Source of the DNA: an uncultured bacterium
GTDB taxonomy: Bacteria > Omnitrophota > Omnitrophia > Omnitrophales > Aquincolibacteriaceae
NCBI GenBank assembly: GCA_964541285.1
Contig: CAZIQJ010000001.1
Span: forward strand, 2,888 to 43,522
Length of the DNA stretch: 40,635 bases
Reading direction: 5' to 3'
The translations under genes were made by a program, and so were the position numbers. Shown here piece after piece: positions 735-38,695 of this stretch (positions are counted from its first letter, which is position 1; every line of letters starts with the position of its first letter). The notes under the pieces are model-generated. The model was not told where the DNA came from, made no database searches, and was given only the letters and a program-made list of their open reading frames with translations.

Positions 735-833
735 ATGACATTTAGAAAAGATTTTAAAATCATCCGGTCTGTGGTGGCGGCCCTGACGCTTACGGCGTTT
801 ATGGCCACTTCCGTTATTCAGCCCGGATGGGCC
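735..833 (+). other. N-terminal Sec-type signal peptide or membrane anchor of the giant protein
   Basis: MTFRKDFKIIR (basic n-region), SVVAALTLTAFMATSVI (hydrophobic core), QPGWA|AP (small residues at -3 and -1). Confidence 0.7.
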
Positions 834-2588
834 GCGCCTGCTTCCGCTCCTGAAACTGGAATCTCACTTCCTTTTTATCTGGACCTTCCGGGCGAACTTG
901 GAAAAGTTGAAACCGCTGTTTCCGGAAAGGGGCCGGTTATTTTCCACATTCAGACCGCTCACGGAAATTATGAAGCTCAGCTGAAAATCCGGGAAATTCT
1001 TCACTACCTTCGCGACAAGCACAATGCCGATCTTTTGCTTCTGGAAGGCACTTCGTTCAAACCCGATGCCGGACTGCTGCAGTTTCTTGAAGACCCCGCC
1101 CTCAACCGTGAAGTTGCGGATCAGCTGACCCACAAGGCTCTTTTGAAAGGCGCTGAACTCTTCATGATGGATGAGCCGTCGTTTCCCGTTTACGGTATTG
1201 AAAATCTTGAAGCTTATTCGGAGAACGGCAGCGCCTTCCGGGACGTTCTGGAACAGAAAAAGACCACGGATGTTTTTCTCAAGAGTTTTGATGAACAGAT
1301 CAACCGGCTGACCGCGGCTTTTTTAAACAAGAACCTGAAAAACTTTCTCAAGCAGTCGGAAGACTATGAAAAGGGGAATATTTCATTTCCCGATTATCTG
1401 GAGAACCTGACAAAGCAGGCGGGAGAAATCCTGAAACTGGACCTCCAGGACCCTGCCAGCCAGATTGACTGGCCCATGCTGGTGCGTATGGCCAGGCTGC
1501 ATGAGCTGGAAAACGGGCTTGACTGGAAAACCTGCCAGAAAGAAAGAAAAGAATTTCTCGAGAAAATCCGGCTGTACCGGCTTCCCGGGGACCTTTACCG
1601 CAGCCTTGAAGCCGCGCTTTCCATGGAGCTGTCCAGGACCGAACTTCCAAACTCCGGAACCAGCCGTTTGTTCGAGGAAATGGTGACCAAACTTCCCGCC
1701 AGTTTTCCGTACGCCAAATATCCCCAATTGGTACGGTTCATGGCCCACCTGATGCTGCAGAGCGAAATGCGCGGCAAAGACCTTTTCAGGGAAACCGAGG
1801 AACTTAAAATCAAGATTGCCCTGAAGCTCGCGGTTTCATCCGAAGAAAAACGCGTTCTCCAGCTGCTGGAACGCTACCATCTTTTGCGCAAGCTTTTCGC
1901 GCTTGGTTTGACGCCGGGGGAATACACCAGGGTAAAGCGCGCGGAGAAAAGACTTGAGCCCTCTGAAATCGCGCGCCAGTTTTCCGAGCTGACCCGCAAG
2001 CCCGGAGTCAAAGACGTGGATTTTTCACACCTTGCGGAGATGGACGTTCTGTTTCGCAAAGGCCTTGAGTTTTACCGCGGCGCCAGGGACCGCGACCGCT
2101 GGATGCTTGAAAATATTGAGTCGCGCATGAAGGCCGCGGGCAAAACGCGCGCGGTGGTCATTACGGGCGGCTTCCATTCCGGTCCGTTCAAGGATTTCTT
2201 TGAAGGCCGCGGTTATTCCTACGCGCTTATGACTCCGGCCATGAACACGCTTGATGGAGAAAAGGAATATCAGGAGGCCAGCCTTCAGAATACCCCTTTT
2301 GAATTCTTGAAATCCACGCGCGAATCTCCTTATCCGTATTCTCTTTCTCCCGCGCTTTCACGGCAGGAGGGCGTCCGCGTTGACTGGGCGGCAGACCGGC
2401 TTGTGGCCGCGGAAACGCAGGTTTTGAAGACCGCCGGAAGACTCCGCGAGCTTCCCGACCAGGCCAACGGGAAAGCAGCTTCCGGAAATTTCGGTATTGT
2501 CTATAACCCTTCACCCGGAAGCGATGCCGTGGTGGTTTCCGCTCCGGGGCTTGCTTTTAAATCCATTTCAGTCACGGGCGTGGTCCGC
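735..2588 (+). other. Module 0 (aa 1-618): signal peptide plus TraB/PrgY/GumN/ChaN/Tiki-superfamily-like domain (putative metalloprotease fold)
   Basis: VIFHIQTAHGNYEAQ...NADLLLLEG (nt 936-1049) and RDRDRWMLEN...AVVITGGFHSG (nt 2085-2183) resemble the GTxH...E, RD..M and GxGH signature of this superfamily. A long helical insert lies between them. Confidence 0.45.
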
Positions 2589-5500
2589 CGTTCAGAGATG
2601 CGCGCGGGTGAAAATGATTACAAAAGTCTTCTTGCCGGTTTCACTTCCGTTGAGCTGAAGGCCCTTAAAGCCATGCCGGACGTCATGTCAGTTTTGGCAG
2701 GAGCCAAACCCTATGCTTCCGGGTTTATGCCTAAAAAAAATTCGAATACCGTGTTATTTTTTGAGCATTTTAAAGATGTTCTCAAGGACACTTCGAATGC
2801 CGGATTTGTGGTGCGTGTTGAGCCGAAAGCCAACAAATACTCTATTTATCTGCGCTCCAGAATCCAGGAAGAGTTTTCGCGTGAAGAGGCCCGGCAGCTT
2901 TTTGAGCGTTATGGGTTACTGGAAGAGTATAAGGCTATCGTAAATCAGGTAAATGGTCCCGATACCTGGCTGTCGGTGGTCCAGAGTCAGGACTTTTTTG
3001 CGAAGGATTCCAACGGGGTTCCGGTCGAGGGGGCTTTTACCAGGAAACAGCAGATTGTTGATTTGATTCTTGGAGTAGCGTTTGGCTACTACCTTTCGGA
3101 TGTGGATTTTTCCGTGTCCCAGACAGGCAGGGAAATCAAGCTTCCTCTTCGTCAGGTTAGAGGTATTTACCCGAACCTTGGATGGCTTGGAAACCCCGCG
3201 AATGCCGCTGCGTCGGACGCGCTTTTGCGCTCCTACGAACAGGCGGCCAGAGAAGTGGCTGATTTTATAGAAACAAAAATCGTGCGCTCTGAGATGCGCG
3301 CGGGAACAAAAGCCCAGGTTCTTTTTTCGATTCTTGACCAGCTTCAGGTATCTGATGCGGGAGAACAAACGGCCCGCACGCGTGAGCTTCTGGAACAGCT
3401 TGAAAAAAGACTTCCGAAGGACGGCAACTGGCCGCGCTGGGATGATGAAGACTGGAAGGGGTTTGGAAACCTGCGCTATTTTGCCGCAGCGCGGGGTATT
3501 TATCAGAAGCTTTCCGGTGAAAAACACGCCAGCCTTGTTCTGCTGATGCAGATGATTTACGACCACTACTCCCTGACCAGTACGCGCGGCGAGGTCAGCA
3601 CGCGTGAGCGGGAAAACAGCCTTGAAAGTTTTTACGGCCTTATCAAGTCCAAGATGGCGACTGTTCAACAGGCTGTGAAGAAGAAATCTACGGATGCTTT
3701 GCCTCAGCGGCCCATTATCATCCGTTATCCCGCAGCCGGGGACGGCTCCCAGGTCATGGGCCTGGCCCAGAACATTCAAAAAGAATTTCCCGGCGTTCCT
3801 TTCAGGGTTGACGCTTATGACAGGAAGGTCCGCTATTACCTCGTTGAGCAGGGAGTTGATTTCGCGGTGTTTGACAGCAGAGGGCGGCTGGCCCAGGCTG
3901 GAATCAACGGAGAACTTTACAATGATGAAGACCTGATCCCTGCAGCGGACCAGGAGGATTTTAAGGAACTCAAAAAAAGATTCCAGAGCAGCATCATCGC
4001 CGTTTCTTTCAGCCGGCTGAATCCAGGCCTTGAAACTGCGCAGCAGGATCTGGCGGGGAAAGGAGTCGAGCTGGTTTTTGACGAGATGGAAATTGAAAAT
4101 GATCCGTATGCCGCCAAGAGCGCCGACATCATCCTTCTTTCGAATCCTCGTTACTCTATCAAGGCGCCGGAATTTGTGGAGCCGACCCTCGGCTCTGCTT
4201 CTTCCCGTGGAGTCTGGTCGGTCCTCTGGACTTCGCATCTGGACAGCATCCGTTCACTTTTCAAGCTTTACGGCCGGACGCTCAAGGCCCCTGACGCAGA
4301 CGGGCATCCGGGTGGATCTCTTCTGATCCTTCAGAATGAGGAAGGCGGCGATTCTTCCCGCTACGATGTCTATACCCGGGAGAATCAGGAGCTTGTTTTA
4401 AAGCCGCATCTGACCGGTGTGACGGGAAATGAAATATCGGGGCAGGGTTTTTCCGCCCTGGTCGCGGCCTATGAGCGAAGCGGTTATCCGCATTTGAAAC
4501 GAATTCCCATTGAGAGAAACGCCCACGTTCTTACCAGAAAAGAAGCGGACGCGCTGGCCCGTCTTTCACGGCCCGTTCCTGTGCGCTGGGAAGACCTGAA
4601 AATTATTTTCACAGATCACTCGCACATGCTTTTTAATCCCGGCGGAAAGCCTAATCGCGCGCTTATCGCCTACCTTGAGGAACTTTTTGAGGCGGGCGCG
4701 ATTATGGTCATTGAAACCGGTGACGGTTCTGAAACAGTTGTGGCGAACGGAATTATCCGTTCTATCAAGAGCAAGTACCGCAGGCAAATCATCCTTAATT
4801 CCGCTACGGGCGCCGTGGCCTATGGTTTTGACAAAAGAGGGCGGCTTGACCGCGAGAACCCTTACTTTAATCTGGCAGAAAGCCTTCTGTCGTCTGTCGA
4901 GATGGACCGCTGGAAGGGTGTTCTGAAAAAAGTTTTTTCTGATTACGGTCTTGGCCCGGCGGTTATTGATAAAGGCTATGGAGATTACGAAAAAAGTTTT
5001 ATTACCAGCAAGGATGGGATTAATTATTCCCTGAGCATTGACAGGCGCCTGACCCGGATGGATGAACGGCAGGGTGAAGCTAAAAACCAGTGGCTGATGA
5101 GCCGCGGTCTTCCGCCTATGGTTCCGGCAGGAAAGGTTTTTGACCTGCGGACGTCCATCCAGACTTATCTGAAGCTGGAGCTTGCCAATGCCAAGCTAGC
5201 CGGAAAGATTGACGTCAGCCTTGTCAGCACCAGGACCCTTGAAACCACGATTCACGGCATTAACAAGCGCGCCGCGATTTATGAGTTGATCCGGCGGGGG
5301 ATTATCCGTCAGAAGCTTCAGGAGAACCTCAACCGCCTTCTTCGTTCAGTCCCTGCGGAGAAAAAAGCCGCTTTTCAGGCGGAATTTCCAAAAGATTATG
5401 ACGCTCGCTACACCGAAGTTTACGGCGACAGCTTTGCTCTGCGCGGAAACCGCATGTCGGACGCTGAGGTTGCGCTGGCGCTTCCGGGCGTTTACAAGGT

Positions 5501-8500
5501 TTCATTCGACGGCGGAGTGATTCCGCGTCAGTGGCTCGCGCCCGGCGTTGTGCAGCATCCCGGCGCCGGCGGGCCGGATGGGCTTCGTGATTATCTGGAG
5601 CAGAAAAAGGAAAAAAGCACCAGCACCGGCAAAAAAAGGGAACAGGTTGAGCGCCGTTCCGAAATGCGCGCCTGGACAAACGAAGCTTTACAAAAGTGGG
5701 CCGAGTCTGCAGTTTCGGGCAACCTGGAAGTGACGGCCAGACTTCAGCAAATTCTGGATATCCTTAACAATGCCGCGCTGAGCAAGAACAAGAAAAAAGA
5801 AGGCATTGCGGCACTCCTTAGAGAAGCCTCCGTAGCTGATCCTCGCCGGGTTGCTCACCAGCTGGCCGGAGCAGACCCGCAGGCGTTTGGAGCGCCGGCA
5901 GAGATTAAAACGCCCGTGACTCCGGCTCCAGTGACTGCGCGCAGAACTATTCCGCCGGCACCGGCTAAAACCGTAACTTCTGCTTCCTCACCGGCTGCCG
6001 CTGCGACCCCGGAAGACGTCATGTGGCAGCGCCTTGAAAAAGAGGTTGGTAATTATTCCAGTATCGAAAACCTCAGGACCGCTCTTGTCATCATGCTGGA
6101 GTATCTCAAGAGCAACGGCTACCCGTATTCCGCGGTGCTGGATAATTTCATTGACCACGTGCGTGTTGCGCAGCCAATGCCGGAGCCTTATGCGTCGCAG
6201 GGCATGCCGTTTGGCAAGGAAAAAAGCCGCGACCACGCTGTCTTTCTTATCAATACCCGCCCGGTCAACGTTTTTTCCCGTATTCAGGACTTGCGTTCCT
6301 CGCGTTCCAAGCTGGGCGCTGCGGCTACGGACTTCATGATAGAAAATATTCTTGCGACCCTGATGGGCGAAGCCTGGGGCATGCACTTCAACAGCCCGTC
6401 CGGCGAAGAGGTGCGGCAGCAGCGCAACGACCTCTACACGCGCTTTCATCCTGCTTACACTGACCCCTCGCTCGCAGGATTTATTTCATTAAATGCGGTG
6501 CTGATTGAGAAAATCGCGGTTGCCGAGTTTGTTCCGGAGCTTGCAGAAAGACTGGCCAAGCTTCACTACCTGATCTGGGCCAGGCAGAAAGGCCTTTTCG
6601 ATCCCGTCAGGGTTGCCAGCGCACTTCACGCCAACAGGCGCGACCCTCAGGTTCAGAGGATGAGTCAGCTGAGACAGAGTGCTTCTTTTGTGCCGCTCAT
6701 TGCTACACAAGGGAACCCGGTCCGCATGCTGGCCGGTGAAATCAGCGGGCTCCTCGGGCAGCTGGTGAATGTCTTTTTTACCGGTTTTGCCCGCGGCCAG
6801 CTGGGTACTACCGAAGCCGCGTATGGTTACTTTGCAATCCTGCTTCAGAAAACCGGCGTCATCACGGAGCCTGAACTCGAGCGGCTGGCCAACAGAGATA
6901 TTACGGGCATGGAAGCCAGGTTTGAAGCGGTGGCGGCACGGCTGTTTCCTGCCGTGGACGCTGAGCTGAGAGCTTCGGGAATTCCCGCAGAATTTTTAAA
7001 CCTTGAAGAGGCCTTCAGAACCTCCGGCCTGAGCGCGCGTTCCGAAATGCGCGCTGAAGTGAAGCCGGAAGAAGACCGCTGGAGCCAGTTTCATGTGAAG
7101 CTGGATAACACCACGATCCGCGGTGTTTCTCCGAAGATGAACAAGGTGGCTTCCGGAGAAATCGTGGTCTGGAACCCCAGGGAAAAAATGCCGGATATTT
7201 CCCTTGTAAGGCCCCACGATTCGGCGGATCAGGCTGAGATCAAGATCGCGAATGAAAAAAGCGCGCTGGATACTATCTGGGAAAAGGTGAGAGAAAAGTA
7301 CGCTTTCCGGGATGTCTATCACCAGGCTTTGCTGGAAGCCGAAACGCTGGTGGCAGATTTTCGTACGGAGATCCGCTCCCGGCGGGAAAAAAGCGAGATT
7401 ATTGTTTCGAGGTTCCTGGGGGATGTTTCTCTTTCCAGGCCGCTGGCTGAGAAGACCCGCGAAATTCTGGGAGTTCTTCTGGAAGCTCTGGAGTCGCGGG
7501 AAGACTTTTTATTCCTGACCAAAGAGACTTCCGGCATTCCTGCGGAAAAGGCCCGTGAGCTTTTGATCAATGCCTATATTGAAAAGGTCATGATCAAACT
7601 GTATGACGTTATTCTTAATCTTCCTTACGGGTTCAACACGGACCTTGAGCCTGTGGTCAAACGTGAGCGCGCGCTTTCCGCTCAGCGCAAGGAAATGCTC
7701 GAAGCTGAAATCCCTTTTATTGAAGCCGAGATCCGGCGGGGCAAAACGCCTCGTCTGGCGATTGAGAGTTCCATCGCCAGGCTGACGACGCAGGTCAATG
7801 AAATGACGCGGCAGGTTGAGACTCTTGAGGCAGCTGTTTTCGCGGAGCAGGCTGAGCCTGAAGAAGCGGCTCAGCCGCAGGGGGAAAGCCGGCAGGCGGA
7901 CGCTGTAACGCGCCTGGAATTTGCGCGGCATAACCTGGATACCGCGGTGGAGCAGATCGGCTACCTGCGAAGCATTATCGCTGAGTTTGACACTTATAAT
8001 TTTATTTATGAGCTCAACGACGAGTCCGATGTCAAGGCCCGGCGGATCGAACAGGAAACTTCCAAGCATGAGGAAGTTCTCCGTATCACTTCGGCATTTC
8101 TTCCGGAGCCCGAACTCGAAGAACCTTTTGACTCGTTTATGCGCAGTGAGATTCTGAAGGGCCGCCCTATCGCTTACGCCTTGTCCAAATTTTTCTACCA
8201 TAACCGCGCCAGAATCAAAAACAGTGAAGAATTCCTGGCTTTCATGATGCGGTATTACGACATTTCAGAGTACGGCATTCCGGGTGACAAGTCGGAAAAA
8301 TCCATCATTGTTTTTGCCAAGGAAATCCGTAATGAGTCTGATTACAACCGTTTGATGGGCACGCTGCGCGGTCACGGCAAGGTGGTGGCTATCGTCGCCC
8401 CGATGCGCGAAGGCGAACTGCGTATTCCTCATTGGTACATTTTCGCGAAGAAGAACAACATTGTGGTGGTCACTTCCGCGAACCTGAAAAAGGCGAGGAT

Positions 8501-11500
8501 TCAGTTTTCCGATATCAAGCCCGGCGACGAAGGGATTGTGGACGGCAAGAAGGGGTTTTTTGTCGTCAACCCTGATAATGCCTCCCGGCAGAGATTTGAG
8601 AGCCTTGGCAGAATTTATGAATATCTGGACACTTATTTTCTGAGCCGCGCGCTTCTGCCCGCGATTTTTAAAGATTTGAGCGTGATTTTTTCAGCGGATG
8701 AAATTGATCTGGCCGTGTTCCGCGAATCCGGAACGAGCGGATCGATCCTTTCGCGTTCCGGAGCCAGAGGGGTCAAGCTCTTCCGGCTTGAAGAAATTCT
8801 CAGCGCGGACCGCAGCCGTCAGGGTATCGAAGATGACTGGCCGCGGCTTCGCGACGCGCTTGCTGAGATCGCGGCCTATCCGTTTTTCCAGAATGGCAAT
8901 GAACTGATCATCCGCATGTATGACGTGGCTGAAGACAAAAGCCCCAAGTTCCTGGTTGAAGGCATGCGCGGACCCAGCCCGGAATGGAGCCGGGAAGATG
9001 TCATGAAAAACATGACGGGCGTCCGTTTCTATCTGAGCAAGGATAAAAAGTACCAGCGTTTCCGCGATTTTGGAAAACGCCAGCTCAAGGCGATTTTTGG
9101 CGCCCGGCTGCAAAAAGGGATTTCTCCCACAGGCATCAAAATCCTTTTTTCCGATGTTCGGAATGCCAAGGAAGTCTTCGCTATTGAAGAGCTGATCGAG
9201 GAAGCGAAGCAGGAATTTCTGGCGGAAGCTGCGCGTTCTGAAACGTTAAGAGAATCTCTTTCAGTGCAGACGTCTTCGGAAATTGCGGGGATTATTGACA
9301 GCATTCCGACTGGTTACATGTTTGAAGATACGCTGTCCGTTGAAAATGAACGCGTTGATATTTTCAGGGCCATTGCGGATCTTCGCGCCAAGCGTCCGGC
9401 TGAGAGGTTCATCGGCATTGGTTCCAATGACATGACCAAGTCTATTAACCGCGAACGTATGGGCGGTGAAATGCCGCTGGATGAACTCAACCCTCTTTTG
9501 ATCCGCGACATCCTGCTGATCGGCAAGGAAGCCAAAAAGCACAATGTGCCTGTGGCCCTGGAAGGGGAATGGGGCGGATCCGCGGCCATGCTCATGGCCC
9601 TGCTTGTTTTGCGGCACAACTACGGCGTTGAAATTGCGCCTGTCGCGGCCACTTCACAGATTCCCGAGCTCCTGGAGTTTGCCCGGACTATGACCTGGGA
9701 TGACCTTGTAAAGCCCGGCATTCAGCCCGGGCCGATAAGCCGCGCGGAGAAATCTTTCAAAACCCTGGTTGAGCTTTCGGTTTATCCTCGCGGATCATTT
9801 TTTATTTTTCGTCTTCTCTATCAGCTTTTTTCATGGCTTCTCAAGATTAAGTGGCTGCCCAATTCTCTGCGCAATACTCTTGAAAAATGGCAGATTGCCT
9901 TTCTGCGCAAATGGCTGCCTATTGAAGAGCTGAACCGTTCCGCGGATGAACTTTTGCAGCTGTTTATTGACCGCGTGGAAAGCTCGGAGTCTTTCAAGTC
10001 TTTTAAGGCTGCGAAAGAAAGAGAAGCTGCGGAGGCGGAGCGGCGGGCCCTTGAGATCAAGCAGGAACTGGAGCGTATTGCCGCTGAAAGGCAGACCGCC
10101 CGGGCATCGCTTGAAATTTCAGGTGCCACGGCGGGTCTGGCGGCTTCAGACGGAATCATTCTTGAAGATCTTAATGACGGAAATTTTATTGAGACGCGTC
10201 AATTTACGGCCGGGAAGTATGGTTTGCACATGCTGCCTGCGGCTCTTCTCCGCCAGGGCGTGGAAGCCATGCAGTCGAATAACAAGGTTCAAAGTCCGGT
10301 ATTCGTGGTCAATGGAAGAGAAATCGCGCTGAATGATGCGACCGGGATCATGATGGCCGCAGTCATGCCCGGGGACTTGGTCGGTATTCGCGGCACGGGA
10401 ACGCGTGAGCAGCTTGACGCGTTTTACGCGCTTGCAGAAAGTATCCGGGAAGAGGACGAGTCACCTTCCTTTATTGCGGCGTACAATCTGGGGACCGGAC
10501 CGGCGGCTGTTGTGGTCCAGACGCCCACGCAGCAGCAGGCGGTTGAAACAACGGTGACTCGCCAGTTTATTACCGGAAAGTATGGTTTGCATATGCTTCC
10601 CGCAGCGCTGCTGCGTCAGGGCGTGGAAACCATGGCCCAGGAAATCCGGGCGCATGATGTTTCGTTTGTAGTTGGAGAAAGAGTCATCGCTCTGGGCGAT
10701 GCGCTTGGAATCATGACGGCCGCAGTCATGCCGGGGGTCGAAATCGGTATTCGCGCTACGGGAACTCCCGCGCAGCTCGAAGCGCTTTACGCGCTGGCAG
10801 AGAGCATTCGCGAAGAAGATGAAACAGCTTCCTTTATTCCCGCCCAGCCGATGGCCGTGTCTGAACCGGCAGTGCCTTCTTCTGAGCCTGCGGCAGCAGT
10901 TCTGGAGACCCGCCAGTTCACAGTTGGCGCTTACGGCTTGCACATGCTCCCCGCGGCCCTGCTTCGCCAGGGAGTCGAGGCCATGCAGCCGGGTGACAGG
11001 GTTCAAGGCCCGGTGTTTGTGGTCAACGGCGCGGAAATTGCGCTGAACAACGCGTTTGGAATCATGACAGCTTCTGTCATGCCCGGAACCGAGATTGGTA
11101 TTCGCGCCACGGGAACTCCTGCGCAGCTTGATGCGTTTTTCACGCTGGCGGAGAGCATTCGCGAAGAAGATAATACGCCCTCTTTTATTCCCGCGCGCTC
11201 TGAAGTCAGAAACCTGGAGCCGGAAAGAATTCCGGACGCCCAGAGAGAGCCGCTCGCCGATGCCGCATTTACAGCCGCTGAAAAAATTCACTCGATTAAA
11301 AAGCGTGTTCTGATTTACGTCCCCGGAAGCGGTCGCTGGGCCGCCGAGCTTGTCTCAAAAATGTGGCAGGCCATGTATCCTGCGGAAACGCTTCATGTTC
11401 TGGCTGCGGACCGGGCCGAACTGAAAGAGGCCCTTGCCGCAATTCCCGCGGCGAGCGAAGGAGTTCTTCTTTTTGATGATACCGTGGTTGACGGCCGGAC

Positions 11501-14500
11501 TTTGAGTGATCAGGCCGGACAACTGGTCCGTTCAACAGGTATTTCCGAGGACAAAATAACAGCGGCCACGCTGTATGCCTGGGGTGAAGAATCGGATGAC
11601 GCGGAGCTTCGGGAGCAGTTCGGAGAAGATTTTATTTATGGCGGTTTCATTAATAATCCAGGGCAAAGCCCCTTCTGGCATACGCGCCGGCGCGCCGCCG
11701 CAGCAGGGTCAGAAGCCCAGCAAGCTCTTGAAGTCCGTTTTCAAAAAGATCTTCCCGCGGCTTTTGACCAGCTTGTTGCTCAAAGGCTGAAGCGTTCGGA
11801 AGTCCGGGAAAAGAGAAGCTCTGAAGAACAGCATGTCATTCTGCAGATCATTAACCTGATCGAAGCCCTGGACGCCAGAGGCATCCGGGCAAAGGTCCAT
11901 GGCCGCGACCTTCTGGAATTCGGAAGCCGCGGAGAAGCGCTTGTGGATTATGTCCAGCGCTACAGCGTGCTGAAAAATATTGATGATATCCGCCGGGTTC
12001 TTTCCTGGCGTCTGGACATTGAATCCAGGTCCGGCCTGCCCCTGAATGGAATGGATTCCGGCAAGACCGCGGAAAAAACACGGCTTTTGTTTGACGCCAT
12101 TTTTGACCAGCCGCAGTTCTTGAAACGCTGGAATGACCGTGACGCCAAAGGCGCCCAGCCCCTGAACATTGTTTTCTTCAAACGCGGCCAGAGCGGATCG
12201 GAGATGACCCATCTTTTAAAGTCCCTGCCTTATGTCAATGTGCAGATTGTTCTGAGCGCCACCGACGACGGGCTTGGCTGGTTTGAAGCTTCCCGTGATT
12301 TTCAGGCCACCGGAATCCCCGGAGCGGGCAAGGTGCTTCTGGACCTGGCGCAGGACAGTGTCGCCAAGGACTTTTTGACTTACAGGATCAAGGGGGATGG
12401 AAAATCCAAGGATGAACTTCTGAAAGATTTTACGGCCCTGGCTGAGAAGCTTCAGTCTCCCCAGCTGAGAGTGAATTTGTCCGACGAAATGTCGGTTGTT
12501 TTTCAGAAAGCCATGCGGCTTGAAGTGGACAAGAGAAGGAAATTCGCGCTTTATCTGGACCGCTTCCTTAAAGAGATCCGGAAAAAGAAAGCAGAGAAAG
12601 CGGATTACACTTTTATTCTCAAAGACATTCCCTTGCGCAGTCTGGCGCTTCTGGGCGCGGCTTTTGTTTACAGGGACGGCGGATCTGAAAACGAATGGCA
12701 GAGCTCTGTGGATGAAATCGGCAGTCTGCTCGGCGTCAAGAAGGGGAACCGGGTTATTCTGCCCACGCGTGAGCGCCAGCACCTTGTGGCGGTGCGTGAA
12801 GACGGAACGATTTATTTTTCTGAAACAGGGATCAATCAGCATGAAACGGATTCTCCGTTTCTGGGTCTTTGGCTGGTCAACGCCACGGTAGACGAAGCTT
12901 TTATTGAGAAGTTCAAGGCCGCTCTGGCGGAAAAATCGGTCGCGCTTGAGAATCTTCCCGAAGGCGCGGTTTCATCCAAACTGGCGAGGTCCAACCGCGC
13001 CGAAGTTTACGCCACGACCCGGAAAGTCAGCGCTGAAGACGCGGTAAAAGCCGCGGCTGTGCTGGCGAAAATATCCAGCACCTCTCCGGACGCTGAAAAA
13101 GCCATTACCGTGACTTCGGAAGCCGCACAGGCCCTGGCCCAGGCGGACGTTACCTTTTATACAACGGCGTTTCTGGAAACCAATGTCGGAGCCAGCTTGA
13201 TTGTTCCGGGCATGAAGGAAGCGGTTGCCGGAAACAAAAAAGCCGCGAAAATTGTTCTGGTTGAAACGCCTGCAAGCTCTGCGGTGAACCATTCCATGGA
13301 CGCGCTCGAACGGGTCCACCGCTATCTGGGCGGTATGCGGACCGGCAAGGGGGATTTGTCCGGAATCGACAGCGAAGTGGATTTTGTTCTTGCCGGCCTC
13401 ACGGGCCGTCAGACCGCGTCCACGGATTTTTTCAGCGAAGTTGAGCGCCCGGTCAACGGGGCGGTTTCTGTCGCTTCCATTAATGCGGGCGCCAGCGATG
13501 CTTTTGGTTTCTACGGTTCTCCGAGCGTTGTTGAGGCCATGGTCGCCCTGACAGGCATCAAGCGGGCCGGTTTCAGGATTTCCGATACGCAGGGCCTGAT
13601 GCCGGATGCCAAGGCGCTTGATCTGGTTTCGCGGCCCACCAACCAGGCCGGACTTTTCCGTAAAAATGAAAGCGTTCAGGCCCTGATCCGCGACATCAAA
13701 CTCAATTTCGCGCGCATTGTCAGGAGCGGGGCTTTCGCTTTTGACGTGGATATGACGCTTCTCCCCAAAAACGCGGACGCGCTGACCGACTATCCCGAGC
13801 TGGCCTATCTTCTGATGCGTCTGATGCGTGAAGGCGTGAAGGTCAGCATTATTTCCGGCAATTCCTTTGAAGAGCAGGGCGCCAGAATTCTGGATGCGAT
13901 CAAAAAACAGATGAAAGACGATCTTTCCGCGCTTCAGAACCTGGTGTTCTTCGTCAATGGAGGCGCCACGCGCTTTAATGTCGGCGTGAACGGTGAAATT
14001 ATTTCTGACCGTGCCTATAACCTCGCGCACCAGCTCGACCGTTCCAAGCTCGGGCCGGCCCTGCAGACTGTTTTGCGCGGCATGGGAAGCCGGAATTTCG
14101 GTTTGAATGAAGGCGAGCTTGCGAAATTTATCGAAGAAGTGAAAGCCAAGAACCCCAAGCTGAACCTTCAGTTCCCCTGGAAAGACGGCGGGAACTGGGA
14201 GCCTGAATGGCTGACGCCCGCCCAGCTGAAAAATAAAAAGGAAACCGGGGAGCCGGTCAGTTTTCCCTGGCTTGAAATGCGCGGGGATTTTACCGGCGCG
14301 ACCGAAGACCTCTGGATTCCCGCGAGCGTGACGGTCAAGCCCATGCAGGTTTTTGAATTTGAAGGCAGGAATTATGACCTGCGCAATGAGTTCCAGGCGC
14401 TGCTGCGCGCGGAGCTGGGCGCTGACGCCGCGCTTTTTGTCATCCGCTCCGGAGGCACTTCCTCAACGGACATCACCAGCAGCGGCGCCAATAAAAACGC

Positions 14501-17500
14501 GGCGCTTGAAAACCTTATTCTTACCGAGCAGCTCGACCCGGAATGGGTTTTTTATTTCGGCGATGAGTTTTACAGAAGGATGGTTTCGGCCGCGGGCGGG
14601 CAGGTGATCCAGCTTGGAAATGACGAAGCCATCGCGCTTGACCAGAAACTTGCCGGTGTCAGGACCCTGGCCGTGAATTCTTCTGATATGAAAGGCGCGC
14701 AGGCCAAGACCCTCTGGATCGGCCGCACGCCCCAGGCCGCTCTGGAATTTCTGGAAGCGGTCCTGATTACCCGCGCGGAAACCGAAAGCCGCTACGCGCG
14801 CTCTGAAATGCGCACGGACGCCCGGCTCGGCGAACTTGGGGCCATTTCAAAACGCCTTTACAGAAACCGGATTGTCGAAGCGGACTTCAGCCGGGTTGAT
14901 CAGATTATTCGGGAGATTTTCGGCAGAACTAAAACCACGCCGGGGGGGCTTGCGGTTTTGGAAACGGCCGGCAATGCCGCTTTTCATAAAATCTATATGG
15001 ATGCGGCCCGTGAAATCCGGGAAAAAGCTTCTTCGAGTGATGAGGCCGCCGCGGACCTTCAGGTTTACTTCGCGGCTCTGGAGATTATCCAGGACTACTT
15101 TAACAGTCAGGCCCACAGGCCGGAAAAACCGCGTGACCGCAAGGTGAACTACCGCAAAACCCTGGCTGTTCTGCAGGTCATGGCCCAGGCCATGCCTGAA
15201 GACCTGAAAACCAGGGTTCAAATCGCGACAGCCTATTTCCATCTGGATGAACTCAGGAAAGCGGAGGTTCTTCTGCTCCCCATCATGAATCTGGAGGGCG
15301 ATATCGTGGTCCGCCGCAGCGCCCGCGTGACCATGGGGTATCTGAAGCAGAAAGCCGCGTGGCGCCGTTATCAGGGGATTCTCAAGCAGACAAAACCATC
15401 AAGGCGTGAACTTGAAGGTGTCATTGCCTTGAGTGAAGAAGCCGCGTCTTATTTCCGGCTTGTCATCGCGGAGTATCAGCGCAACCAGACGTATAAAGCG
15501 CAGGCGGCCAGGGCCTATTCCGGTTTTTCTTCGGCTGAAAGATTCCTTCAGCAGGCTTACCTGAAAATGGGGCAGATTGAAACTTCGGCTTCTGCGCGCG
15601 CAAGATTTTATCTCGAGTCTTTTGAGCATGGCGCAAACGCTCTTGAAGCCGCTGCGCGCGCTCTTGCGGCAGGCGCGGGTAAGCAGGATTCTGAAAGGCA
15701 CTCATTGCAATTTTATCAGGCTGCGCTTCAGAACATCGCAGGTGAAGCCGGGGCAGGAACAAGCGCTGCCGGGGAAATCGTTCGCTTAGGCGCCGGAGAC
15801 TGGGGAGAGGCCGAAAGAACCCGTCTTAAAGCAGCAATCGACTTGATTACGGGTCTTTTGCAGGGCCGTCTTCCAAACGGTCTTGTGTATTCCCAACCCG
15901 CGCAAGGGGACCGCGAAGCGCTGATCCTGGATCTTGCGGCCCGGATGCGCGAGGATCTTGAAGCTGCGGAGCTGATTCGCGGGCCTGTCGTGAAAACCGC
16001 AGGGGAATTGGCCGGAACTTCCTACACAGACCTTGCCGCGCTGAAAAACGACGTTCTTGAAATGACGGAACTGGACAGGGCCGCCATTGCTGTGAAATTG
16101 AAACATGCTTCTGAGGCGGATGAACGCATCGCCCGCTACAGCGGCGCGGCTTTTGATGGCCTTGGACTTGACCGCAAGGACCTTTTTATCCTGCGCTATG
16201 CTTTTGAAAATTTTTCAGGCGGCCAGCTGCCTTCTTCGCCTTCTGTTTCAGACCTTGCCGATATCGCGGGCTACGCGGAAATCGGATACGGTGAAAGCAT
16301 TTCCGCGGAAGAAATTCTGGAAAGACTGCAAGCCGGCCGTTACGGTTTCGCCGGATGGAAATGGAAACAGCCGGAAACCGAATACTCTTCAGCCGCGGCC
16401 GTGGAAGACGCGAGGGAAAAACGCCGGGAGCTTGTGGTTTTTGATAATGACCACATTAATGCATATGCTGTTTCAGATGCCCGCGCGCTCAGGTCAATGC
16501 GGGATTTATCGCTCCGCACGCGTGTCTGGATGCGGCCCGAGAGGTCTGCTGTGATTGATGCTCTGGCCGGACAAATTGATAAAGACATTCAGGAGTTCAG
16601 CAGGATCCAGTCCCTGATTGAAACAGACCGCGCGGCCCGCCGGCAAAGAGTCTCCGAAGGCAGGCTTGATCCTTCAAGGGTCCGGAACCTGCTTCAGGAC
16701 CTCACAGAGCTGCGTTCCGGCACCGCCAGCCGGGAAGGCTATGCTTCCAGGCTTAAACGGCTTGAAACATTAATCGCCAACGACAGTGCTTTTATCGAAA
16801 CTTATATTTCAAAAGGCTTTCGTCAAAGCAGGCCTGAAGGTTTCAGGCTCAGCCAGCTTGAAGATGAAGCGGTGGAGCGCGGAAAACAGCGTGTTGAAGG
16901 ACGTCTGGCGGCTTTGGGTTATGCCGGACTTGAACTGCCGTTTGATTTTCAGGGCGCTGGAGCAGGCTACGGCATGGTGCGTCTTGAAAGCTACATTCAG
17001 CTGCTGAGAGAGATGAATAAAAAGTATCCCTTTTCATGGCTGAGCGCGGACATCGCGATGCTTGGCCAGCTTGCAAGCGAGCTTTCCGGCATTCTGGATC
17101 CTGAAAATCCCGAAGCCTATTCTTTCGAAGCTTATTTCCGGATTATGGAATCCGCGACCGAAATCCTGCTCCGGAACGCTCTTTTTGTGGAGCGCAACCG
17201 TCCGCAGCTTGAGGATATTTACGGCAGTCTGGAAAAGGTCCGGGTTTTGGTCATCCGTCTTGAAGACGCGGCCGTAAAAATGCGCGATGATGATTGGACA
17301 GCCCAGGCGGTTCAGGCCCGCCGGCGTTATGAGGCCTTTTCTTCCCAGATTGCAAATATTCCGCGCCGTTACAATCACTGGGACAAAATTTCCCGCCGCC
17401 AGCAGGTTCTCAAGAAGATCCATGGCCTTGAAACAGAGGTTTCTGAATCTGTCATAAGATATGAAGACCGCCGCCGCGCGCGTATGGCGGAGCTGACCTC

Positions 17501-20500
17501 GAAGGCCGAAGGTCTGGTGGCCCAGACCCTTGCGGCCGTGGAAGAAAAACTGCGCCGGCGTAATGAATCACTGCCCATGGGGCTGGACAAGAAGCAGGTC
17601 CGTGACTTTCGCGCTGAAGCCGGAAAGGTCAGCGCCGGAAAATTCGTGGCGGCTTACTATAACGACCATGAGGATGTCCGGAAGATCGTGACTGCCATTG
17701 AAGGGGATCTCCAGAGGGTCGGAGAGTCACTTGCCGCAAATGTGGATTCCTTGAAACCCGCGGGTACGGATTTCCAGCGCGCGGTCCGCCAGATTTCCGC
17801 TGATGTTGAAGCCGGCAGGTGGAAAGAGCTGCATGATGCGGCTCAGGCCATTGTCCGCAACAGCTATGATCAAGAAAATATTTTCATAAACGTCATCAGA
17901 GGGGGAAACATTGACAGCCATTCTGAAGAATTTCAGATGCTTGACAGGTCGCTGACCCGGACCCTTCAAGTCCTTGAGGGGGAAGCGTCAGGCCTGGACG
18001 CGGATTCTGTACGGGCCCTGAAAGAATTCTCCGGCAGCATGCTTGCCTATCTGACGATTGTGTCGTGGCCTTCCAAGAAGTTCAAGGTTTCAGAGGAGAC
18101 TATCCGCTTTTTTCTCGGCAGCCGGAATGTCTGGGAATCTGTTCTCTGGTATGGGTTGATGGAGATGATGGATGAGACGGCCGGACTCATGAAAACCACG
18201 GCCCGGAGAGAAGCTTTTACCGACAATCTGGATGCTGTCTGGATTTTTGCGCTTCTTATGTTCGCCGGTGACGGCGCGGACGATTTTGCCGGAAACGAGA
18301 CGCTGGAATACACCGTGTCCATGGAGCAGATGCTTGAAATTACCATGAATTCAATTGAGACGGACAGAAACCCTGTGGAGGACGCATGGAGGCTGCTCAG
18401 GTCTTTTGATATCACACCGGAAAACCTTCTTCAGATCAAGATCGATTTCCTTCTTGGCCGGGTCCAGGCGCGCCATAATCTTGCCGGACTCCGGAACTGG
18501 ATTTATGACAGTGTGGAGGCAAAAGCCAGGAGCAAGGCAATCGCCGTGGTGCCGCAGCGCTTTAACCCGCTTTCTGTCAGCGCGCACAGCAGCTTTGTTG
18601 AAAGCAACAAGGTCGATGAGAAATACCCTCTCTGGCTTCCTCCGGTAACCGAAAGGCGGGAATTGCTGGAGGACCTTGTTCTGATTTTGAGCGGCCAGGA
18701 TAAAGACAGCGCGGCCAATGTCCGCCTGCAGGGATTTGCAAGGGCGAGGCCGCATGATCTCAAGCGGGTCCTGGCGGAAATCCGCGAGCCGGATTTCACG
18801 GATGAGCGTTTCCGTTCAAAGCGCGATGCCGCCATCGAGTATCTTGAGAAACTGCTGAAGCGTTCCGAAATGCGGGCCGTGGAAGTGAAAGAACGCAGGG
18901 CCTTCAGTGATTACACCCATCCGCTTCTTGCGGCGTCTTATTCCGCGGACGGCCGTTATATCGTGACCGGAGATTCGGGCGGCGCGTTTCAGGTCAGGGA
19001 CAGCTCTTCCGGAATCGTGCTCGCGAAATATACCGTGCATCCCGGCGGCAAAGTCCAGACAGTCGCTTTTTCTCCCAAGGGAACGAAGCTTTTGGGCGCG
19101 GACGGCAAGGGAAATCTTTTTCTCTGGGACACGGCATCGGGCAGCACGCCCATAAGTTTTGCCTCAACCCGGAGCCTTTCAAATTCTCTGGCGTTTGCTC
19201 CGAACGGTGAATACGTTTATTCAGGCCTGAATAATGGAGTGGTCATGGCCTATGATTTCCGCGGCACCAGCCACAACTACAATCTTCTTCCTCCCAAAAC
19301 AGAGCCGCTGAACGTGGTGACGGTTTCTTCCGATTCGACCATGGTCGCGGCGGGCGGGCAGCAGGGGACCTTGAGTGTCTGGGTGGACAAACCCGGCAAT
19401 CATGACCGTATCGCCTATATTGAGCAGGCGGACAAGGAAATTGGCGCCATCGCATTTTCTCCGGACGGTAAAACTCTGGTTTGGGGCGGGAAAAACAGTT
19501 CGCTTTCTTTCGGGGACCTGACGGCGCAGAATTTCAAGGCCAGCATCACCAAAACTCTGGTGCCCAACCCGTCCAGAGCTTCACGGATCAATGCCCTGGT
19601 TTTTTCCAACGATGGCGAATATTTTATATCCGGCCATGAAAACGGCGACATCCGTTTATGGAATTCAAAAACCCGGGCTGTTGTTTACACGCTCAACTCT
19701 GCTCACGCGGGCCCGGTCAGAGCGCTTTCCTTTTCTCCCGCCGGGGATTACTTCGCCTCCGCAGGAGCGGACAAGAAACTCGCTATCTGGGAAATCCCTT
19801 TTGACGCGGATAAAGCCGCGAGTCAGTACCTTTCCGGAGTTCAGGGGTCCGGAGGGTTTGCCAGAAAATACGAGCCTTACCGGCTGAAACCCGAAGTTCC
19901 TGCCTTTATTTCCATGATGCCGTCCGCCCAGGACGGAAGCGTGGAATTAAGAGTCCACGATTTGACCACGAAAACCATTCTTGCTTCAAAGCCGTTTTCC
20001 GTGTTTCAGGACACGGGTTCTGTTTCTATCAAGGAGTGGAGAACCGCGGGCAGGCTTGCGGAAGCCGAAGCCGGGCGAGGTGAAGCCGGCGTGAGAATCA
20101 GGGAATTCCCCCTGGATTCCGGGCAGTACGTGAAATATCCCGATCCGCATTACTCGAGCAGCGGAAAATGGACCGTGGAGCTGGAGAAGCAGCCTGAGAG
20201 CGTCATCAAGGGCAGAGAAGAAACTTTGACGGAGCGGCTGATTTTTAAAACAAACGGCACGGAAGGTTTCTTGAATTTTCCCAGGCAGATGACAGGCCGG
20301 GGAAATGAAACCTGGGTCCATGTAACATCCGCTGGAAAGATTTATATCCTTCAGTCATCCTTTTATACGAAGGCTGCGAGCCTGTGGCAATTTGATCTGC
20401 CCGCGCATCTTTCCGGGCCTAAAAAAGGCACAGGGTTATTCAGGTCCGTGGACCTCGGGGCCAATGGAGAAAAATCTCTTTCCGGCCTTACGGAGCACAA

Positions 20501-23500
20501 CGGCGTTCTTTACTCTTTTGACCGCAAGGCCGAAGAGCTGATCCCGGTTACTGCGGCTGCGCGTTCTGAGATGAGAAGCTCTGCGCCGCTTTCAGCGCGT
20601 TTGAATGAGGGCGACATCGCATCCATTGAAGAAGCGCTGAAGACCCTGCCGCTGGCGCGTGATTTCCGTGTGGAGTTCGCGGGCCGTGTTCCGCAGGGAA
20701 CGCAGGTTTTCCGCGCGGCCGCGGATGTTATTTTGCCGCTTCTTGAAAAGCTCGATCCTTCGCTTGCCAGAAAATCCCGCACCACGCTTGATGGAAGCGG
20801 AGACGCCAAAAGAGGGAACTGGTCCTTTTATTACGCAGACGGCACTTTGTTTGTGGTCAATGCCATGACGGAATACGGCGTGCCGCATCCTGAGCGGCCC
20901 TGGCAGGAACCTTCCACAAAAGAAACCGGCCACCGTCTTTTTGTCCGTACCGTCAACGACGGCAGGGACATGCAAAACCTCCTGGCTGAGGGAAAGACCC
21001 CGGAACAGTTCGCGGCTTCCCTGAACAGCATTTCGCGTACTTTCCTCGGGATCAAAGAGGGGAAAGAAAGCCCTCTTTCCATTGATCTGGCGGAAGGCAA
21101 ACTTCGTTTCACGCTGAAACTTGAACGCGCTTCGGAAACTCCGCGGACGATGGTCATAGACTCTATTGATCCTGAAAACCCGGCCGCGTTTTCAGGTATT
21201 TACCTGGTTTATCTTTTGCTTGCCAGTCTGGAACGCCGTCCGCTTGCTGCCGCGGAAAATATCGCGGGCCTTCCTTTCCGCCTTTCTCTTAAAGCCCGCA
21301 TCAGCTTGCTGGCTCTTACCATAATTGCCGCGGCGCTGGTGGGTCTGGGTTCATACTTACTTTTCTTTCATAAAGCTGAAAAGCCGGCAGAGGGGTCTGG
21401 AGCCCGGCAGATTGAAATCAAGATCAAGGCTGAAAAAGGAGAGTTTGAAGCTTTTAAGGAATTCAAACCTGAAGACCTCAGTTTCCTGGACCCGAAGGGC
21501 ATCGTGATTACGCCCGGTCCCCACGAAGTCATCCGCGGAGAAAACCCGGACAAGAATTTCAAGATTGTTCTGCGGCCCGGCCTGCCTACGGCGGATATCA
21601 TGATCCATCCTTCCCGCCGCGAAGGTTTTGATTTTGACGGCCAGTTTAACATCGCGCTCGGGCTGGAAGCCGCGGGCGGTCCGGCAGAACGTGCGGGCAG
21701 AGCCATGGTGTTTCTGCAGACTGAAAACGAAAACGGTGAGAAAACCGAAACCCTTTACCCCCTGATGCTTTCCCAGACTCCGCAGCGCTTCCGGCTGGAT
21801 TACGGCCGCGGTGAAAAGAAGTCGCCGCGCGTGACCTTGATTCGCATCCAGCTTGCTCCTGACGCTGATCCGCAAGGCTCCGTCATTGGCATCCAGCTGC
21901 AGGGCGGTATGGAATTCGGCGTCATGGCCCGCTCTGAAATGCGCGCGCCTGAATGGCGGGTCGCAAGGATTTCCGCGGCGAAAACAGCCGAAACGCTGAT
22001 CCGGTTTTTGGACCGTGAGGAATTCAGAAACCTGGGTATTTATGCGGCTTCAGGCGAAGGCTGGGTCCCGTCGGCTGGCGGAGACGTGAAGGGCCTGACG
22101 ATCAGTTTTCCTCAAAACCTTCGCGCGGACAGAATTCCGCGTTCCTACGGTCTTTGGTACACGGCCGGAGAAACCGGCAGGCGCTGGACTGTTTATTCCC
22201 AGGACGCCCGGCCCGAAGCGCAGTCCATGCCCCCGGATGCGATCATGGGCGAAGAAGATCTTGCAACGGTGCAGCCTGAAAGCACAGGGTATGAATTCGC
22301 GAACGGTTATATAAACATTTTGTCGGACGACAGGACAAATATCTTCGGCTCATCTTACTCCTCGGATCATTTGTGGGGATCGCTGATCACGATCAGTTTT
22401 GACACCCGGAGAAATCAGCTGGTTGGAATTGTTGAGGACGGGCTCTTTGATTTTATTATGGAACAGCTGCGCGGTTTGCCGGCTGTGGCGGCGCGGGTTC
22501 AGGCTGATCAATTTCTTCTCAAGGAGTCGGAAGCTGTCCGTCTCAAGCGCGAAGATGAAAACAACTTGCCCGGTGTTCAGGTTGTTCCCGGAGACACACC
22601 GGTTGTTGAATTCAGCCGCCAGGGAAGCGTTTTAAATGTCGCGATAGGTGATGAGCGTTTCAACGGAGAGAAAGTGGACGACCTGGAGACCTGGCTCATA
22701 AGGGGAATTCCCGGCTACACGATGGATGTTATTGCCACGCGCTCCCAGAACGCTCTTTCGATCGGCATTCCCGGCGCAGCAAAAAGAGCTCTTCTTTCAA
22801 TGGACGGCGAACCTGTGGACATCGCGGAAACCCTTCGCCAGGCGCTTGTCCCGAACACGGAGAAGCGTTCCGAAATGCGTACGCGCATCACGGCGGAGGA
22901 TTTTAACGCGGCCAGCCTTAAACCTCTTCTGGGCAAAAAAGTTCTGGTCCGTTACATGGATCATGAGGGCGAGCACTCGGAAACCGGAATTCTTGCAGGT
23001 GTCGGCAGGGAGGAAGGCCTTGTGGTCATCCGCCTGAGGGGTGAAGACGGAGAAACCCGCCTGCCGGTCCGGCTTGCGCCGCCTTATCAGGGAAAAAACC
23101 GTTTTATTTCTATTGAAGAAGCGCTGGATGTGCCGGCTCCGGTCACGGCAACTGCGAGGTCGCGGCGCGCGGAACCCGTACCTTTTTACAAACGCCCGCT
23201 GGTGCTGGGAGGTTTGATCGGTGGATTGCTCTTGATCGTGGTTCTGGCAGTTGCGCTGCTGATTCCTTCCGGGCAGAAAACCGCGCCGCCGAAAGAAGAG
23301 CCTGTTATTGAAAGGCCTGTTGAAACCAGGCCCGTGGACAAGGGAGAAGTCAAAGACGGCCGTGCGCCGCCCAGGGACGGAGAAAAAGTCCAGCCTAAAG
23401 ACAAGGAACAGACCAAGGATAAAGATAAGGAAAAACCCAAGGACAAAGACAAGGAAGAAGTCAAACAGCCTGAGCCCAAGGGCGCTACGGCCAACCTTCT

Positions 23501-35753: not shown

Positions 35754-35780
35754 TCCTTCTTCCGGCCGCGCATTTAGTAT

Positions 35781-35809
35781 TTGACCAGGCATTTTCGGCT
35801 TGAGATAAT
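35781..35809 (+). promoter_or_regulatory. Candidate sigma70-type promoter for fabI and downstream genes
   Basis: TTGACC (35781-35786), 17-nt spacer, GATAAT (35804-35809), in the 112-nt gap after the giant ORF stop. Confidence 0.4.
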
Positions 35810-35865
35810 CAACAGATCAAATTCTCTTGGAACCCCAAAGGAACTTATATATGGAGACCCATACC

Positions 35866-36663: not shown

Positions 36664-36669
36664 TCCTGA

Positions 36670-37278: not shown

Positions 37279-37349
37279 ATCTGCTTAACTTCTTTACCTG
37301 CAATCATTTAAATTAAAGCAAAAGCCCGCTGGGAAGCGCTCCGGGTTTG

Positions 37350-37358
37350 TGATATAAT
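37350..37358 (+). promoter_or_regulatory. Candidate extended -10 promoter element upstream of iscS
   Basis: TGATATAAT (TGn + perfect TATAAT at 37353-37358), 45 nt before ATG 37404. The -35 is weak (TGGGAA). Confidence 0.4.
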
Positions 37359-37403
37359 TCCCTTCTTCTAACCCTTTACTTTTAAAACAGTTGTGAGCGA
37401 AAA

Positions 37404-38588: not shown

Positions 38589-38599
38589 TTTGGATTGTC

Positions 38600-38619: not shown

Positions 38620-38642
38620 CCAAGCGTTACCAGAAACCCTGG

Positions 38643-38662: not shown

Positions 38663-38695
38663 GGCAGGAAATGTTAACACAGGAGTAAAAAATTT

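Follow-up and report, generated by a model that had tools for sequence, protein, structure and literature searches.

We describe here the N-terminal part, module 0, of a giant protein encoded in a 40,635-nucleotide stretch of DNA from an uncultured bacterium of the phylum Omnitrophota (GenBank assembly GCA_964541285.1, contig CAZIQJ010000001.1, positions 2,888 to 43,522; hereafter the window). Structural modeling supports assigning the fold of module 0, at superfamily level, to the TIKI/EreA/ChaN superfamily. The reading that we favor, with somewhat better than even confidence, is that module 0 is a Sec-exported hydrolase of this TIKI-type superfamily that acts on an extracytoplasmic substrate, and that it is probably not the enzyme that cuts cytoplasm-side junctions of the giant protein. 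A preliminary description of the same DNA had proposed that module 0 joins a signal peptide to a TraB/PrgY/Tiki-like fold and is a candidate cis-encoded processing enzyme for a recurrent RSEMR motif.

The giant open reading frame (ORF) runs uninterrupted along the plus strand (735..35753) and encodes 11,672 amino acids (aa) with a single Cys. RSEMR is found 18 times in the protein, against 0.007 expected, and RSExR 22 times (23 with RSEHR at aa 11357), against 0.34 expected. The RSExR sites delimit 24 modules, and the end of module 0 (aa 1-618, nt 735-2588) coincides with the first RSEMR (aa 619-623, nt 2589..2603, plus strand). Other RSExR sites in the window lie, e.g., at 3285-3299 and 5655-5669, and VTGVVRRSEMRAGENDYK is an example of a junction-spanning peptide.

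A predicted TIKI-type fold in module 0

The AlphaFold2 (AF2) model of aa 1-562, built from 24 sequences, had a predicted local distance difference test (pLDDT) score of 83.4, with the core above 90. The core strands (aa 56-62, 68-73, 100-103, 152-154, 472-477, and 495-501) are interrupted by a helical lobe at aa ~158-438. Because of this lobe, Foldseek searches with the full 562-aa model were swamped by coiled-coil and helical proteins and gave no significant match, EreC being the best globular one (prob 0.41-0.57). A core-only construct was also modeled, in which aa 46-178 were joined to aa 439-522 and aligned to the full-length homologues (pLDDT 92.4; predicted template modeling [TM] score, pTM, 0.89). 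With this model, the best Foldseek match in the PDB was the Pseudomonas syringae type III effector HopBA1 (5t09; E 9.5e-4, prob 1.00, TM 0.44, 16% identity), and EreC was also found (6xcq and 6xcs; E 8e-3 and 1.5e-2, prob 0.99 and 0.98, TMq 0.41-0.42). The remaining matches, among them P-loop kinases and cyclodipeptide synthases, had a prob of 0.6 or less and mostly a TM of ~0.2. Structure prediction, which the preliminary description had named as a check on its proposal, bore out the fold in that a confidently modeled core finds two proteins of TIKI fold. HopBA1, Bcr135, ChaN, PMT, and RRSP have been grouped as TIKI-superfamily folds (Jang et al. 2018), and the EreC fold has been described as common to BcR135/136, ChaN, HopBA1, and PMT (Zielinski et al. 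2021); 5T09, 3B55, 2G5G, EreC, and RRSP have been placed in one fold (Jang et al. 2018; Zielinski et al. 2021).

The module 0 sequence alone gave only noise against Pfam, NCBIfam, and PDB sequences. For family members and the family consensus, the top sub-threshold Pfam matches all fell on Tiki-type families. Cofac_haem_bdg (PF04187, 'Tiki superfamily, ChaN') was matched by member P0010 with an E of 2.3e-4 (21.6 bits against a cutoff of 27.7) and was the best single match of the core consensus (E 1.6e-3). Erythro_esteras (PF05139) was reached with an E of 0.012-0.013 (15.6-15.8 bits against a cutoff of 26.4), and DUF5694, putatively Tiki-type by its clan, with an E of 0.013. PF01963, the TraB/PrgY/GumN family, was not matched in Pfam scans of module 0, the members, and the family consensus, and an NCBIfam scan of the consensus returned nothing. 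The closest branch of module 0 appears to be EreA/ChaN/HopBA1, not TraB/PrgY. The TraB/PrgY/GumN/ChaN/Tiki assignment made earlier is therefore upheld at the level of the superfamily, by the Foldseek matches, the sub-threshold Pfam matches, and the residue spacing described below, with the closest relatives probably on the EreA/ChaN/HopBA1 branch.

Module 0 heads a multi-copy family of Omnitrophota

Homologues of module 0 numbered first 10 and later 27. A profile search of 1.84 billion representatives then gave 9,263 clusters at E≤1e-3 and 5,709 at E≤1e-30, a family of at least 9,263 clusters. The profile match was always N-terminal, in proteins of up to ~7,800 aa. Family statistics in this work refer to the 150 best-scoring representatives plus the 27 homologues, not to all 9,263 clusters, and many homologues are truncated at contig ends. 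The named genomic loci of the family belong almost entirely to Candidatus Omnitrophota, with several copies per genome. Module 0 marks the N-termini of a multi-copy protein family that is specific to Omnitrophota.

Complete members are built alike: a signal peptide with the TIKI-like domain, a [RH][SA]ExR junction, variable modules, a further [RH][SA]ExR junction, and a C-terminal module. The first junction lies 49 to 200 aa past the histidine of the GGFH string in 83% of the members, and the last one 220 to 320 aa from the C-terminus. The C-terminal module is found in nearly all complete members and shows weak sequence conservation; since it has almost no invariant residues, it is not considered a protease, and a Pfam scan of it gave no match. 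In the window protein it spans aa 11357-11672 (nt 34803-35750, plus strand) and ends in ...LIQSAA. An [S/A/M]-A ending is present in 108 of 147 proteins, and endings of the SA/AA type recall C-terminal degrons or secretion signals. The idea of a type I secretion-like C-terminal signal, suggested by this ending and the lack of Cys, was dropped as a poor fit with the internal Sec/Tat signals described below.

Cys is rare throughout the family (306 in 438,628 aa, or 0.07%), and several members of >5,000 aa have none. The only Cys of the window protein is at aa 267; the flanking housekeeping genes contain 0.6 to 2.8% Cys. Some of the rare Cys residues of the family stand in lipobox-like contexts right after a junction.

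The neighborhoods of three homologues and of the window gene were unrelated to one another, and no conserved protease or secretion genes were found in them. In locus L002 (19349-24935, contig k141_287819), the 1,644-aa member P0015 lies 4.4 kb from a second giant gene of 3,906 aa on the opposite strand, the visible C-terminal 1,862 aa of which lack Cys, carry RSETR and RSELR near the end, and terminate in ...KVSA. Family members can therefore be close neighbors in a genome.

Conserved putative catalytic residues

All of the strings quoted in the preliminary description were located in module 0, namely HIQTAHGNYEAQ, LLLLEG, RDRDRWML, and VVITGGFHSG, which are numbered H71-IQTA-H76-GNYEAQ, LLLL-E104-G, R451-DRDRWML, and VVITGGF-H481-SG. 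Among 156 representatives, obtained by clustering the family at 50%, residues H76, E104, G105, E156, E353, F446, Y447, R453, G478, G479, H481, and P501 were invariant, which argues against a chance occurrence of the strings. H71 was kept in 91% and Q73 in 96%; at this latter position, three residues before H76, a few members such as P0016 have Glu in place of Gln.

The catalytic residues have been reported as E47, H50, E78, R261, and H289 in EreC, H85 and E113 in Bcr135, and E3900, H3902, E3930, R4001, and H4030 in RRSP (Jang et al. 2018; Zielinski et al. 2021). The spacing from His to Glu is 28 residues in module 0 (H76/E104), EreC (H50/E78), Bcr135 (H85/E113), and RRSP (H3902/E3930), and that from Arg to His is 28 in module 0 (R453/H481) and EreC (R261/H289) and 29 in RRSP. 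Q73 stands where the 2His/2Glu motif has its first Glu (EreC E47, RRSP E3900). Published residue numbers together with family conservation thus suggest which residues of module 0, EreC, and RRSP correspond. Because its putative catalytic residues are invariant, module 0 would be expected to be an active hydrolase, a competence that we infer by homology. Tiki depends on metal, and EreC and RRSP do not (Jang et al. 2018; Zielinski et al. 2021), so the residues that had been taken for metal ligands need not bind metal. The putative hydrolase is probably metal-independent.

Layout and predicted export of module 0

Module 0 begins with a predicted Sec-type signal peptide (aa 1-33, nt 735..833, plus strand). 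Signal-peptide, Tat, lipobox, and transmembrane calls were rule-based, and the Sec rule applied was a positive n-region, an h-region of 10 to 18 residues, and small-x-small at -3/-1. The window N-terminus, MTFRKDFKIIRSVVAALTLTAFMATSVIQPGWA followed by AP (i.e., MTFRKDFKIIR-SVVAALTLTAFMATSV-IQPGWA followed by A), carries a net positive charge in its n-region, followed by a hydrophobic core ~16 residues long and then a small-x-small site, with heuristically predicted cleavage after GWA33. The AF2 model places a helix at aa 3-27 and a disordered stretch at aa 28-45. These features are shared by 144 of 162 family N-termini, so that the signal peptide noted earlier is retained as a heuristic call.

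The N-terminal half of the TIKI-like α/β core (aa 46-157, nt 870..1205, plus strand) holds the first four strands and, from conservation and the AF2 model, the residues H71, Q73, H76 (nt 960-962), E104 (nt 1044-1046), and E156. It is followed by the all-helical inserted lobe (aa 158-438, nt 1206..2048, plus strand), with conserved Q243, W246, P247, and R251 and the invariant E353; topologically, this lobe is positioned like the helical minor lobe of EreC/BcR135. The C-terminal half of the core (aa 439-520, nt 2049..2294, plus strand) contains F446, Y447, R453 (nt 2091-2093), TGGF-H481 (nt 2175-2177), and P501. The tail (aa 521-618, nt 2295..2588, plus strand) leads to the first junction, and the pLDDT is <50 for the modeled aa 520-562.

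The junction motif and what follows it

Across the family, the junction motif reads [RH][SA]E[LVMAI]R. RSExR occurs 736 times in the 438,628 aa and is the only strongly enriched 5-mer outside module 0 family-wide. Small residues stand on both flanks and acidic residues follow. Among the members of >1,500 aa, 102 of 108 carry the motif.

A strongly hydrophobic segment was found within 60 aa after 8.7% of the junctions compared to 4.9% of random positions (odds ratio 1.8, p 2.6e-5). These segments look like Sec signal peptides, like lipoprotein signals that include the lipobox Cys (LVG/C), or like twin-arginine (Tat) signals (RRxFL), as in RSEVR followed by AIDRRAFLGAAAGAAALLG and RSESR followed by FLKRRDFISLTALAGAVAF; such sites are present in P0063 (aa 596), P0121 (aa 623), P0081 (aa 2528), P0038 (aa 1190), and P0041 (aa 1224). 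Tat-like motifs followed junctions 13 times, against 5 expected. In P0018, P0063, P0069, and P0121 the signal comes directly after module 0, at junction 1, and in P0121 it is Tat-like (Pfam TAT_signal, sub-threshold at 18.8 against 22.7 bits) and is followed by a GH2-type glycosidase. A Tat signal operates at a free N-terminus in the cytoplasm, and in an uncut chain a second N-in signal is impossible after an exported module 0. Since Tat requires this free cytoplasmic N-terminus, junctions in front of Tat, Sec, or lipobox signals would have to be cut on the cytoplasmic side. The sequences thus suggest that the modules are targeted one by one, as separate proteins, and that cutting of the chain takes place on the cytoplasmic side, with the junctions probably processed in the cytoplasm.

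The codons of the junctions are biased in the window. At the 23 RSExR sites, Ser is always encoded by TCN and never by AGY, which makes up 32% of the Ser codons of the ORF, and the first Arg always by CGN and never by AGR (22% in the ORF); the Glu and last Arg codons vary freely. This bias could stem from a shared ancestry of the junctions or from a constraint at the nucleotide level. Use of the in-frame ATG of RSEMR as an internal translation start was considered and rejected: Ala occupies the variable position in 18% of the junctions of the family, Leu and Val being common there as well, and no Shine-Dalgarno sequence is present upstream of the sites. In the 6,474-aa member P0094, a variant junction, H[AS]E[LM]R, takes the place of RSExR (e.g., SPHAELRNKE and SVHSELRAAS), and a 17-aa tandem repeat, SSRKELRTAQNSHAELP, is also present; this member is a candidate natural test of co-variation between enzyme and site.

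A probable exported hydrolase or a possible junction protease

In the reading that we favor, module 0 would be Sec-exported, or tethered on the outer face of the membrane, as a member of the TIKI/erythromycin-esterase/ChaN/HopBA1/TraB superfamily. A signal peptide (aa 1-33) would precede two core halves (~46-157 and ~439-520) split by a helical lobe of ~280 aa, and a disordered tail would lead to the first RSEMR. With the water-activating set H76, E104, R453, and H481 retained and Q73 in place of the first Glu, module 0 would be expected to be an active hydrolase operating outside the cytoplasm, our best guess being a peptidase or esterase for extracytoplasmic substrates. Candidate substrates, which we name by inference, would be exported parts of the module 0 proteins themselves or envelope or host molecules. 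Junction processing, if any, would then be carried out by something else in the cytoplasm.

Several points weigh against this reading and the fold assignment beneath it. The decisive structural match came from an engineered deletion construct, and its TM-scores of 0.41 to 0.44 are modest. No Pfam or NCBIfam profile matched the window module, the members, or the family consensus above its curated threshold, and from the profile comparison proposed in the preliminary description there remain the sub-threshold matches, the best of which are Tiki-type (ChaN, erythromycin esterase, and DUF5694). Hidden Markov model searches of PDB sequences with full-module and core-only alignments found no TIKI member. 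An hhalign comparison to the profile of Escherichia coli YbaP (TraB) gave a prob of <1%, the profile being shallow (Neff 2.2, near-identical enterobacterial sequences). Clustering of H76, E104, R453, and H481 in space is expected from homology to EreC only, and export from simple signal-peptide rules. Finally, universal linkage to RSExR-bearing proteins is the pattern to be expected of a dedicated junction protease.

The alternative that survives best, which we consider a tentative possibility on the unlikely side, is that module 0 acts as a TIKI-type endopeptidase encoded in cis. It would cleave at the [RH][SA]ExR junctions, probably behind the second Arg, and thereby free the modules, much as viral N-terminal polyprotein proteases or the MARTX autoprocessing domain do. 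The TIKI fold with intact catalytic residues fits such a role, and endopeptidases are proven in the superfamily by Tiki and by RRSP, the latter within a giant MARTX toxin. Module 0 is the first part of the protein to be translated, is separated from the rest by a junction, and is the sole enzyme domain universally linked to the motif (the 102 of 108 long members); in 83% of the members that junction follows the GGFH histidine of the core at the 49- to 200-aa distance given above. The earlier claim that it is the only protease-related module holds within the limits of detection: Pfam and PDB phmmer searches found no protease-like domain in modules 1 to 23, of which ~15 remain dark. No conserved neighboring protease gene was found, and the small +1 residues and linker-like context would suit a cleavage site. 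However, cleavage at the motif is a prediction only, and module 0 carries a Sec signal, yet ~9% of the junctions, including junction 1, directly precede Sec, lipoprotein, or Tat signals. The free N-terminal signal of a Tat substrate in the cytoplasm would be out of reach of an exported enzyme; a Sec-exported module 0 would be unavailable to cytoplasm-side junctions, which weakens its role as the junction enzyme. Moreover, the 6 of 108 long members without the motif retain all catalytic residues. The cis-encoded RSEMR enzyme of the preliminary description thus keeps its precedents and its linkage to the motif and is opposed by the conflict of compartments and by these motif-less members. Both the junction protease and the exported hydrolase with another substrate rest on heuristics. 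In its furthest form, which we regard as doubtful, module 0 would be the founding TIKI-type autoprocessing protease of true bacterial polyproteins, cutting [RH][SA]E(hydrophobic)R junctions, in cis or in trans among paralogues, perhaps prior to its export, in the course of it, or once delivered into a host cell.

It is very unlikely, in our estimate, that module 0 serves for binding or anchoring without catalysis, either as a ChaN-like ligand binder or as an N-terminal retention or targeting device that draws the ribosome to the membrane during translation, with the TIKI-like residues being structural. The superfamily does include non-enzymes (ChaN, which binds haem, and PMT, which is without the catalytic motif), the ChaN family is the best single Pfam match, and Gln replaces the first Glu of the 2His/2Glu motif. 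Against this, H76, E104, R453, and H481 are 100% conserved in the 156 divergent representatives with the spacing of the active EreC, and members that are not enzymes, such as PMT, no longer have them. That the TIKI resemblance is convergent or spurious and module 0 an unrelated Rossmann-like α/β domain seems still less likely: although every sequence-profile match is sub-threshold, the TM-scores are <0.5, and the Foldseek list also contains P-loop kinases and cyclodipeptide synthases, the TIKI-fold matches stand at a prob of 0.98 to 1.00 against 0.6 or less for the others, and independent lines agree, namely three Pfam families, EreC as the best globular match of the full model, and four catalytic residues whose order and spacing are identical.

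Comparison with known systems

Like module 0, EreA/B/C and BcR135/136 (PF05139) have an α/β core with a helical lobe between the halves, and EreC presents His, Glu, Arg, and His in the same order with the identical 28-residue spacings. The identity to the Ere family is ~10 to 12%, the Ere lobe is a four-helix bundle whereas that of module 0 comprises ~280 aa, and E47 of EreC is Gln in module 0. Unlike the Ere proteins, module 0 bears a signal peptide and is fused to a giant modular protein, and nothing suggests a macrolide substrate. HopBA1 (PDB 5T09), to which the core matched best in structure, consists of a minimal TIKI-fold domain that lacks the minor lobe (Jang et al. 2018; Zielinski et al. 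2021); in contrast to module 0, it is a stand-alone effector of 217 residues, has no helical lobe, and shares 16% identity.

Tiki1/2 and RRSP belong to the same superfamily and share the catalytic logic of a His-Glu pair that activates water. Neither Tiki nor RRSP processes its own polyprotein; in the MARTX toxin, a distinct cysteine protease domain does the cutting. The Gln of module 0 corresponds to a Glu in RRSP, and sequence searches detected no similarity of module 0 to Tiki or RRSP. Tiki is an extracytoplasmic, membrane-tethered protease, and RRSP is one module of the giant autoprocessed MARTX toxin (Jang et al. 2018). As for the TraB/PrgY/GumN family (PF01963), the GxxH...E...R[DN]xx[MW]...GxxH pattern is visible in E. 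coli YbaP as in module 0, although module 0 matches neither PF01963 nor the shallow YbaP profile. PrgY-type proteins are extracytoplasmic.

Viral and MARTX polyproteins resemble the window protein in having a conserved short motif at the boundaries of unrelated modules, but autoprocessing calls for a protease and cleavage sites in one compartment, unlike what is predicted for module 0 and the junctions. The Omnitrophota 'multi-enzyme' giants (West-Roberts et al. 2023 and Nielsen & Lui 2026, preprints) come from the same phylum and are likewise giant ORFs tiled with unrelated enzyme domains, most of them carrying signal peptides or transmembrane helices. For these giants, the cleavage points were stated to be unknown and C39/S8 peptidase domains were proposed (West-Roberts et al. 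2023). Neither preprint mentions module 0, RSExR, the C-terminal module described here, or the lack of Cys.

Other modules and genes of the window

In modules 1 to 23, Pfam and PDB phmmer identified PEP-utiliser/HPr, CofD/HAD, WD40, HEAT, and PALP (a pyridoxal-phosphate enzyme) domains. Module 4 (7038-11195) consists of a PEP-utilizing enzyme domain and three tandem HPr-like repeats (TRQFT.GKYGLHMLPAALLRQGVE...) and is a phosphotransferase system enzyme I/HPr-like fusion within the giant protein. Strongly hydrophobic, charge-free segments that resemble transmembrane helices lie in modules 9, 11, and 12, at aa 6858-6876, 7492-7510, and ~8354-8374 (nt ~21306-21362, 23208-23264, and 25794-25856); a polytopic topology argued from these three internal helices was abandoned as ambiguous. 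After the second of these segments, module 11 contains low-complexity stretches rich in Lys, Asp, Glu, and Pro (KDKEKPKDKDKEE...).

Upstream of the giant gene lies a HAD-type hydrolase gene (91-612), and downstream (35827-39019) are genes for a FabI-like enoyl reductase, an exonuclease-like protein, an IscS-type cysteine desulfurase, and an IscA/HesB protein. These flanks are ordinary housekeeping genes, and no protease, secretion, or mobile-element genes adjoin the giant gene in the window. Many long ORFs of up to 820 aa run antisense to it (e.g., minus strand 22797-25259, 34290-35792, and 2916-4238) and are most likely not genes but non-coding shadows cast by its codon bias.

Significance

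The fold and the catalytic logic of module 0 are already known. What is new is a very large TIKI/Ere/ChaN branch that has no Pfam or NCBIfam model, carries a 280-aa helical lobe, and heads modular giant proteins; among 8 million papers and preprints, we found no description of module 0, the junction motif, the C-terminal module, or the avoidance of Cys. The family signature (an N-terminal TIKI module, the junction motif, the C-terminal module, and no Cys) singles out thousands of genes. On the question of whether the Omnitrophota giants act as single chains or as cut pieces, module 0 and RSExR offer concrete handles, a candidate enzyme with four mutable residues and a defined candidate site. 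If the chains are cut, they would be cellular polyproteins whose modules bear their own Sec, Tat, or lipoprotein signals, a principle of gene organization otherwise known mainly from viruses. If autoprocessing were true, single ORFs of up to >10,000 residues would yield dozens of separately targeted proteins, whether cytoplasmic, Sec-exported, Tat-exported, or lipoprotein.

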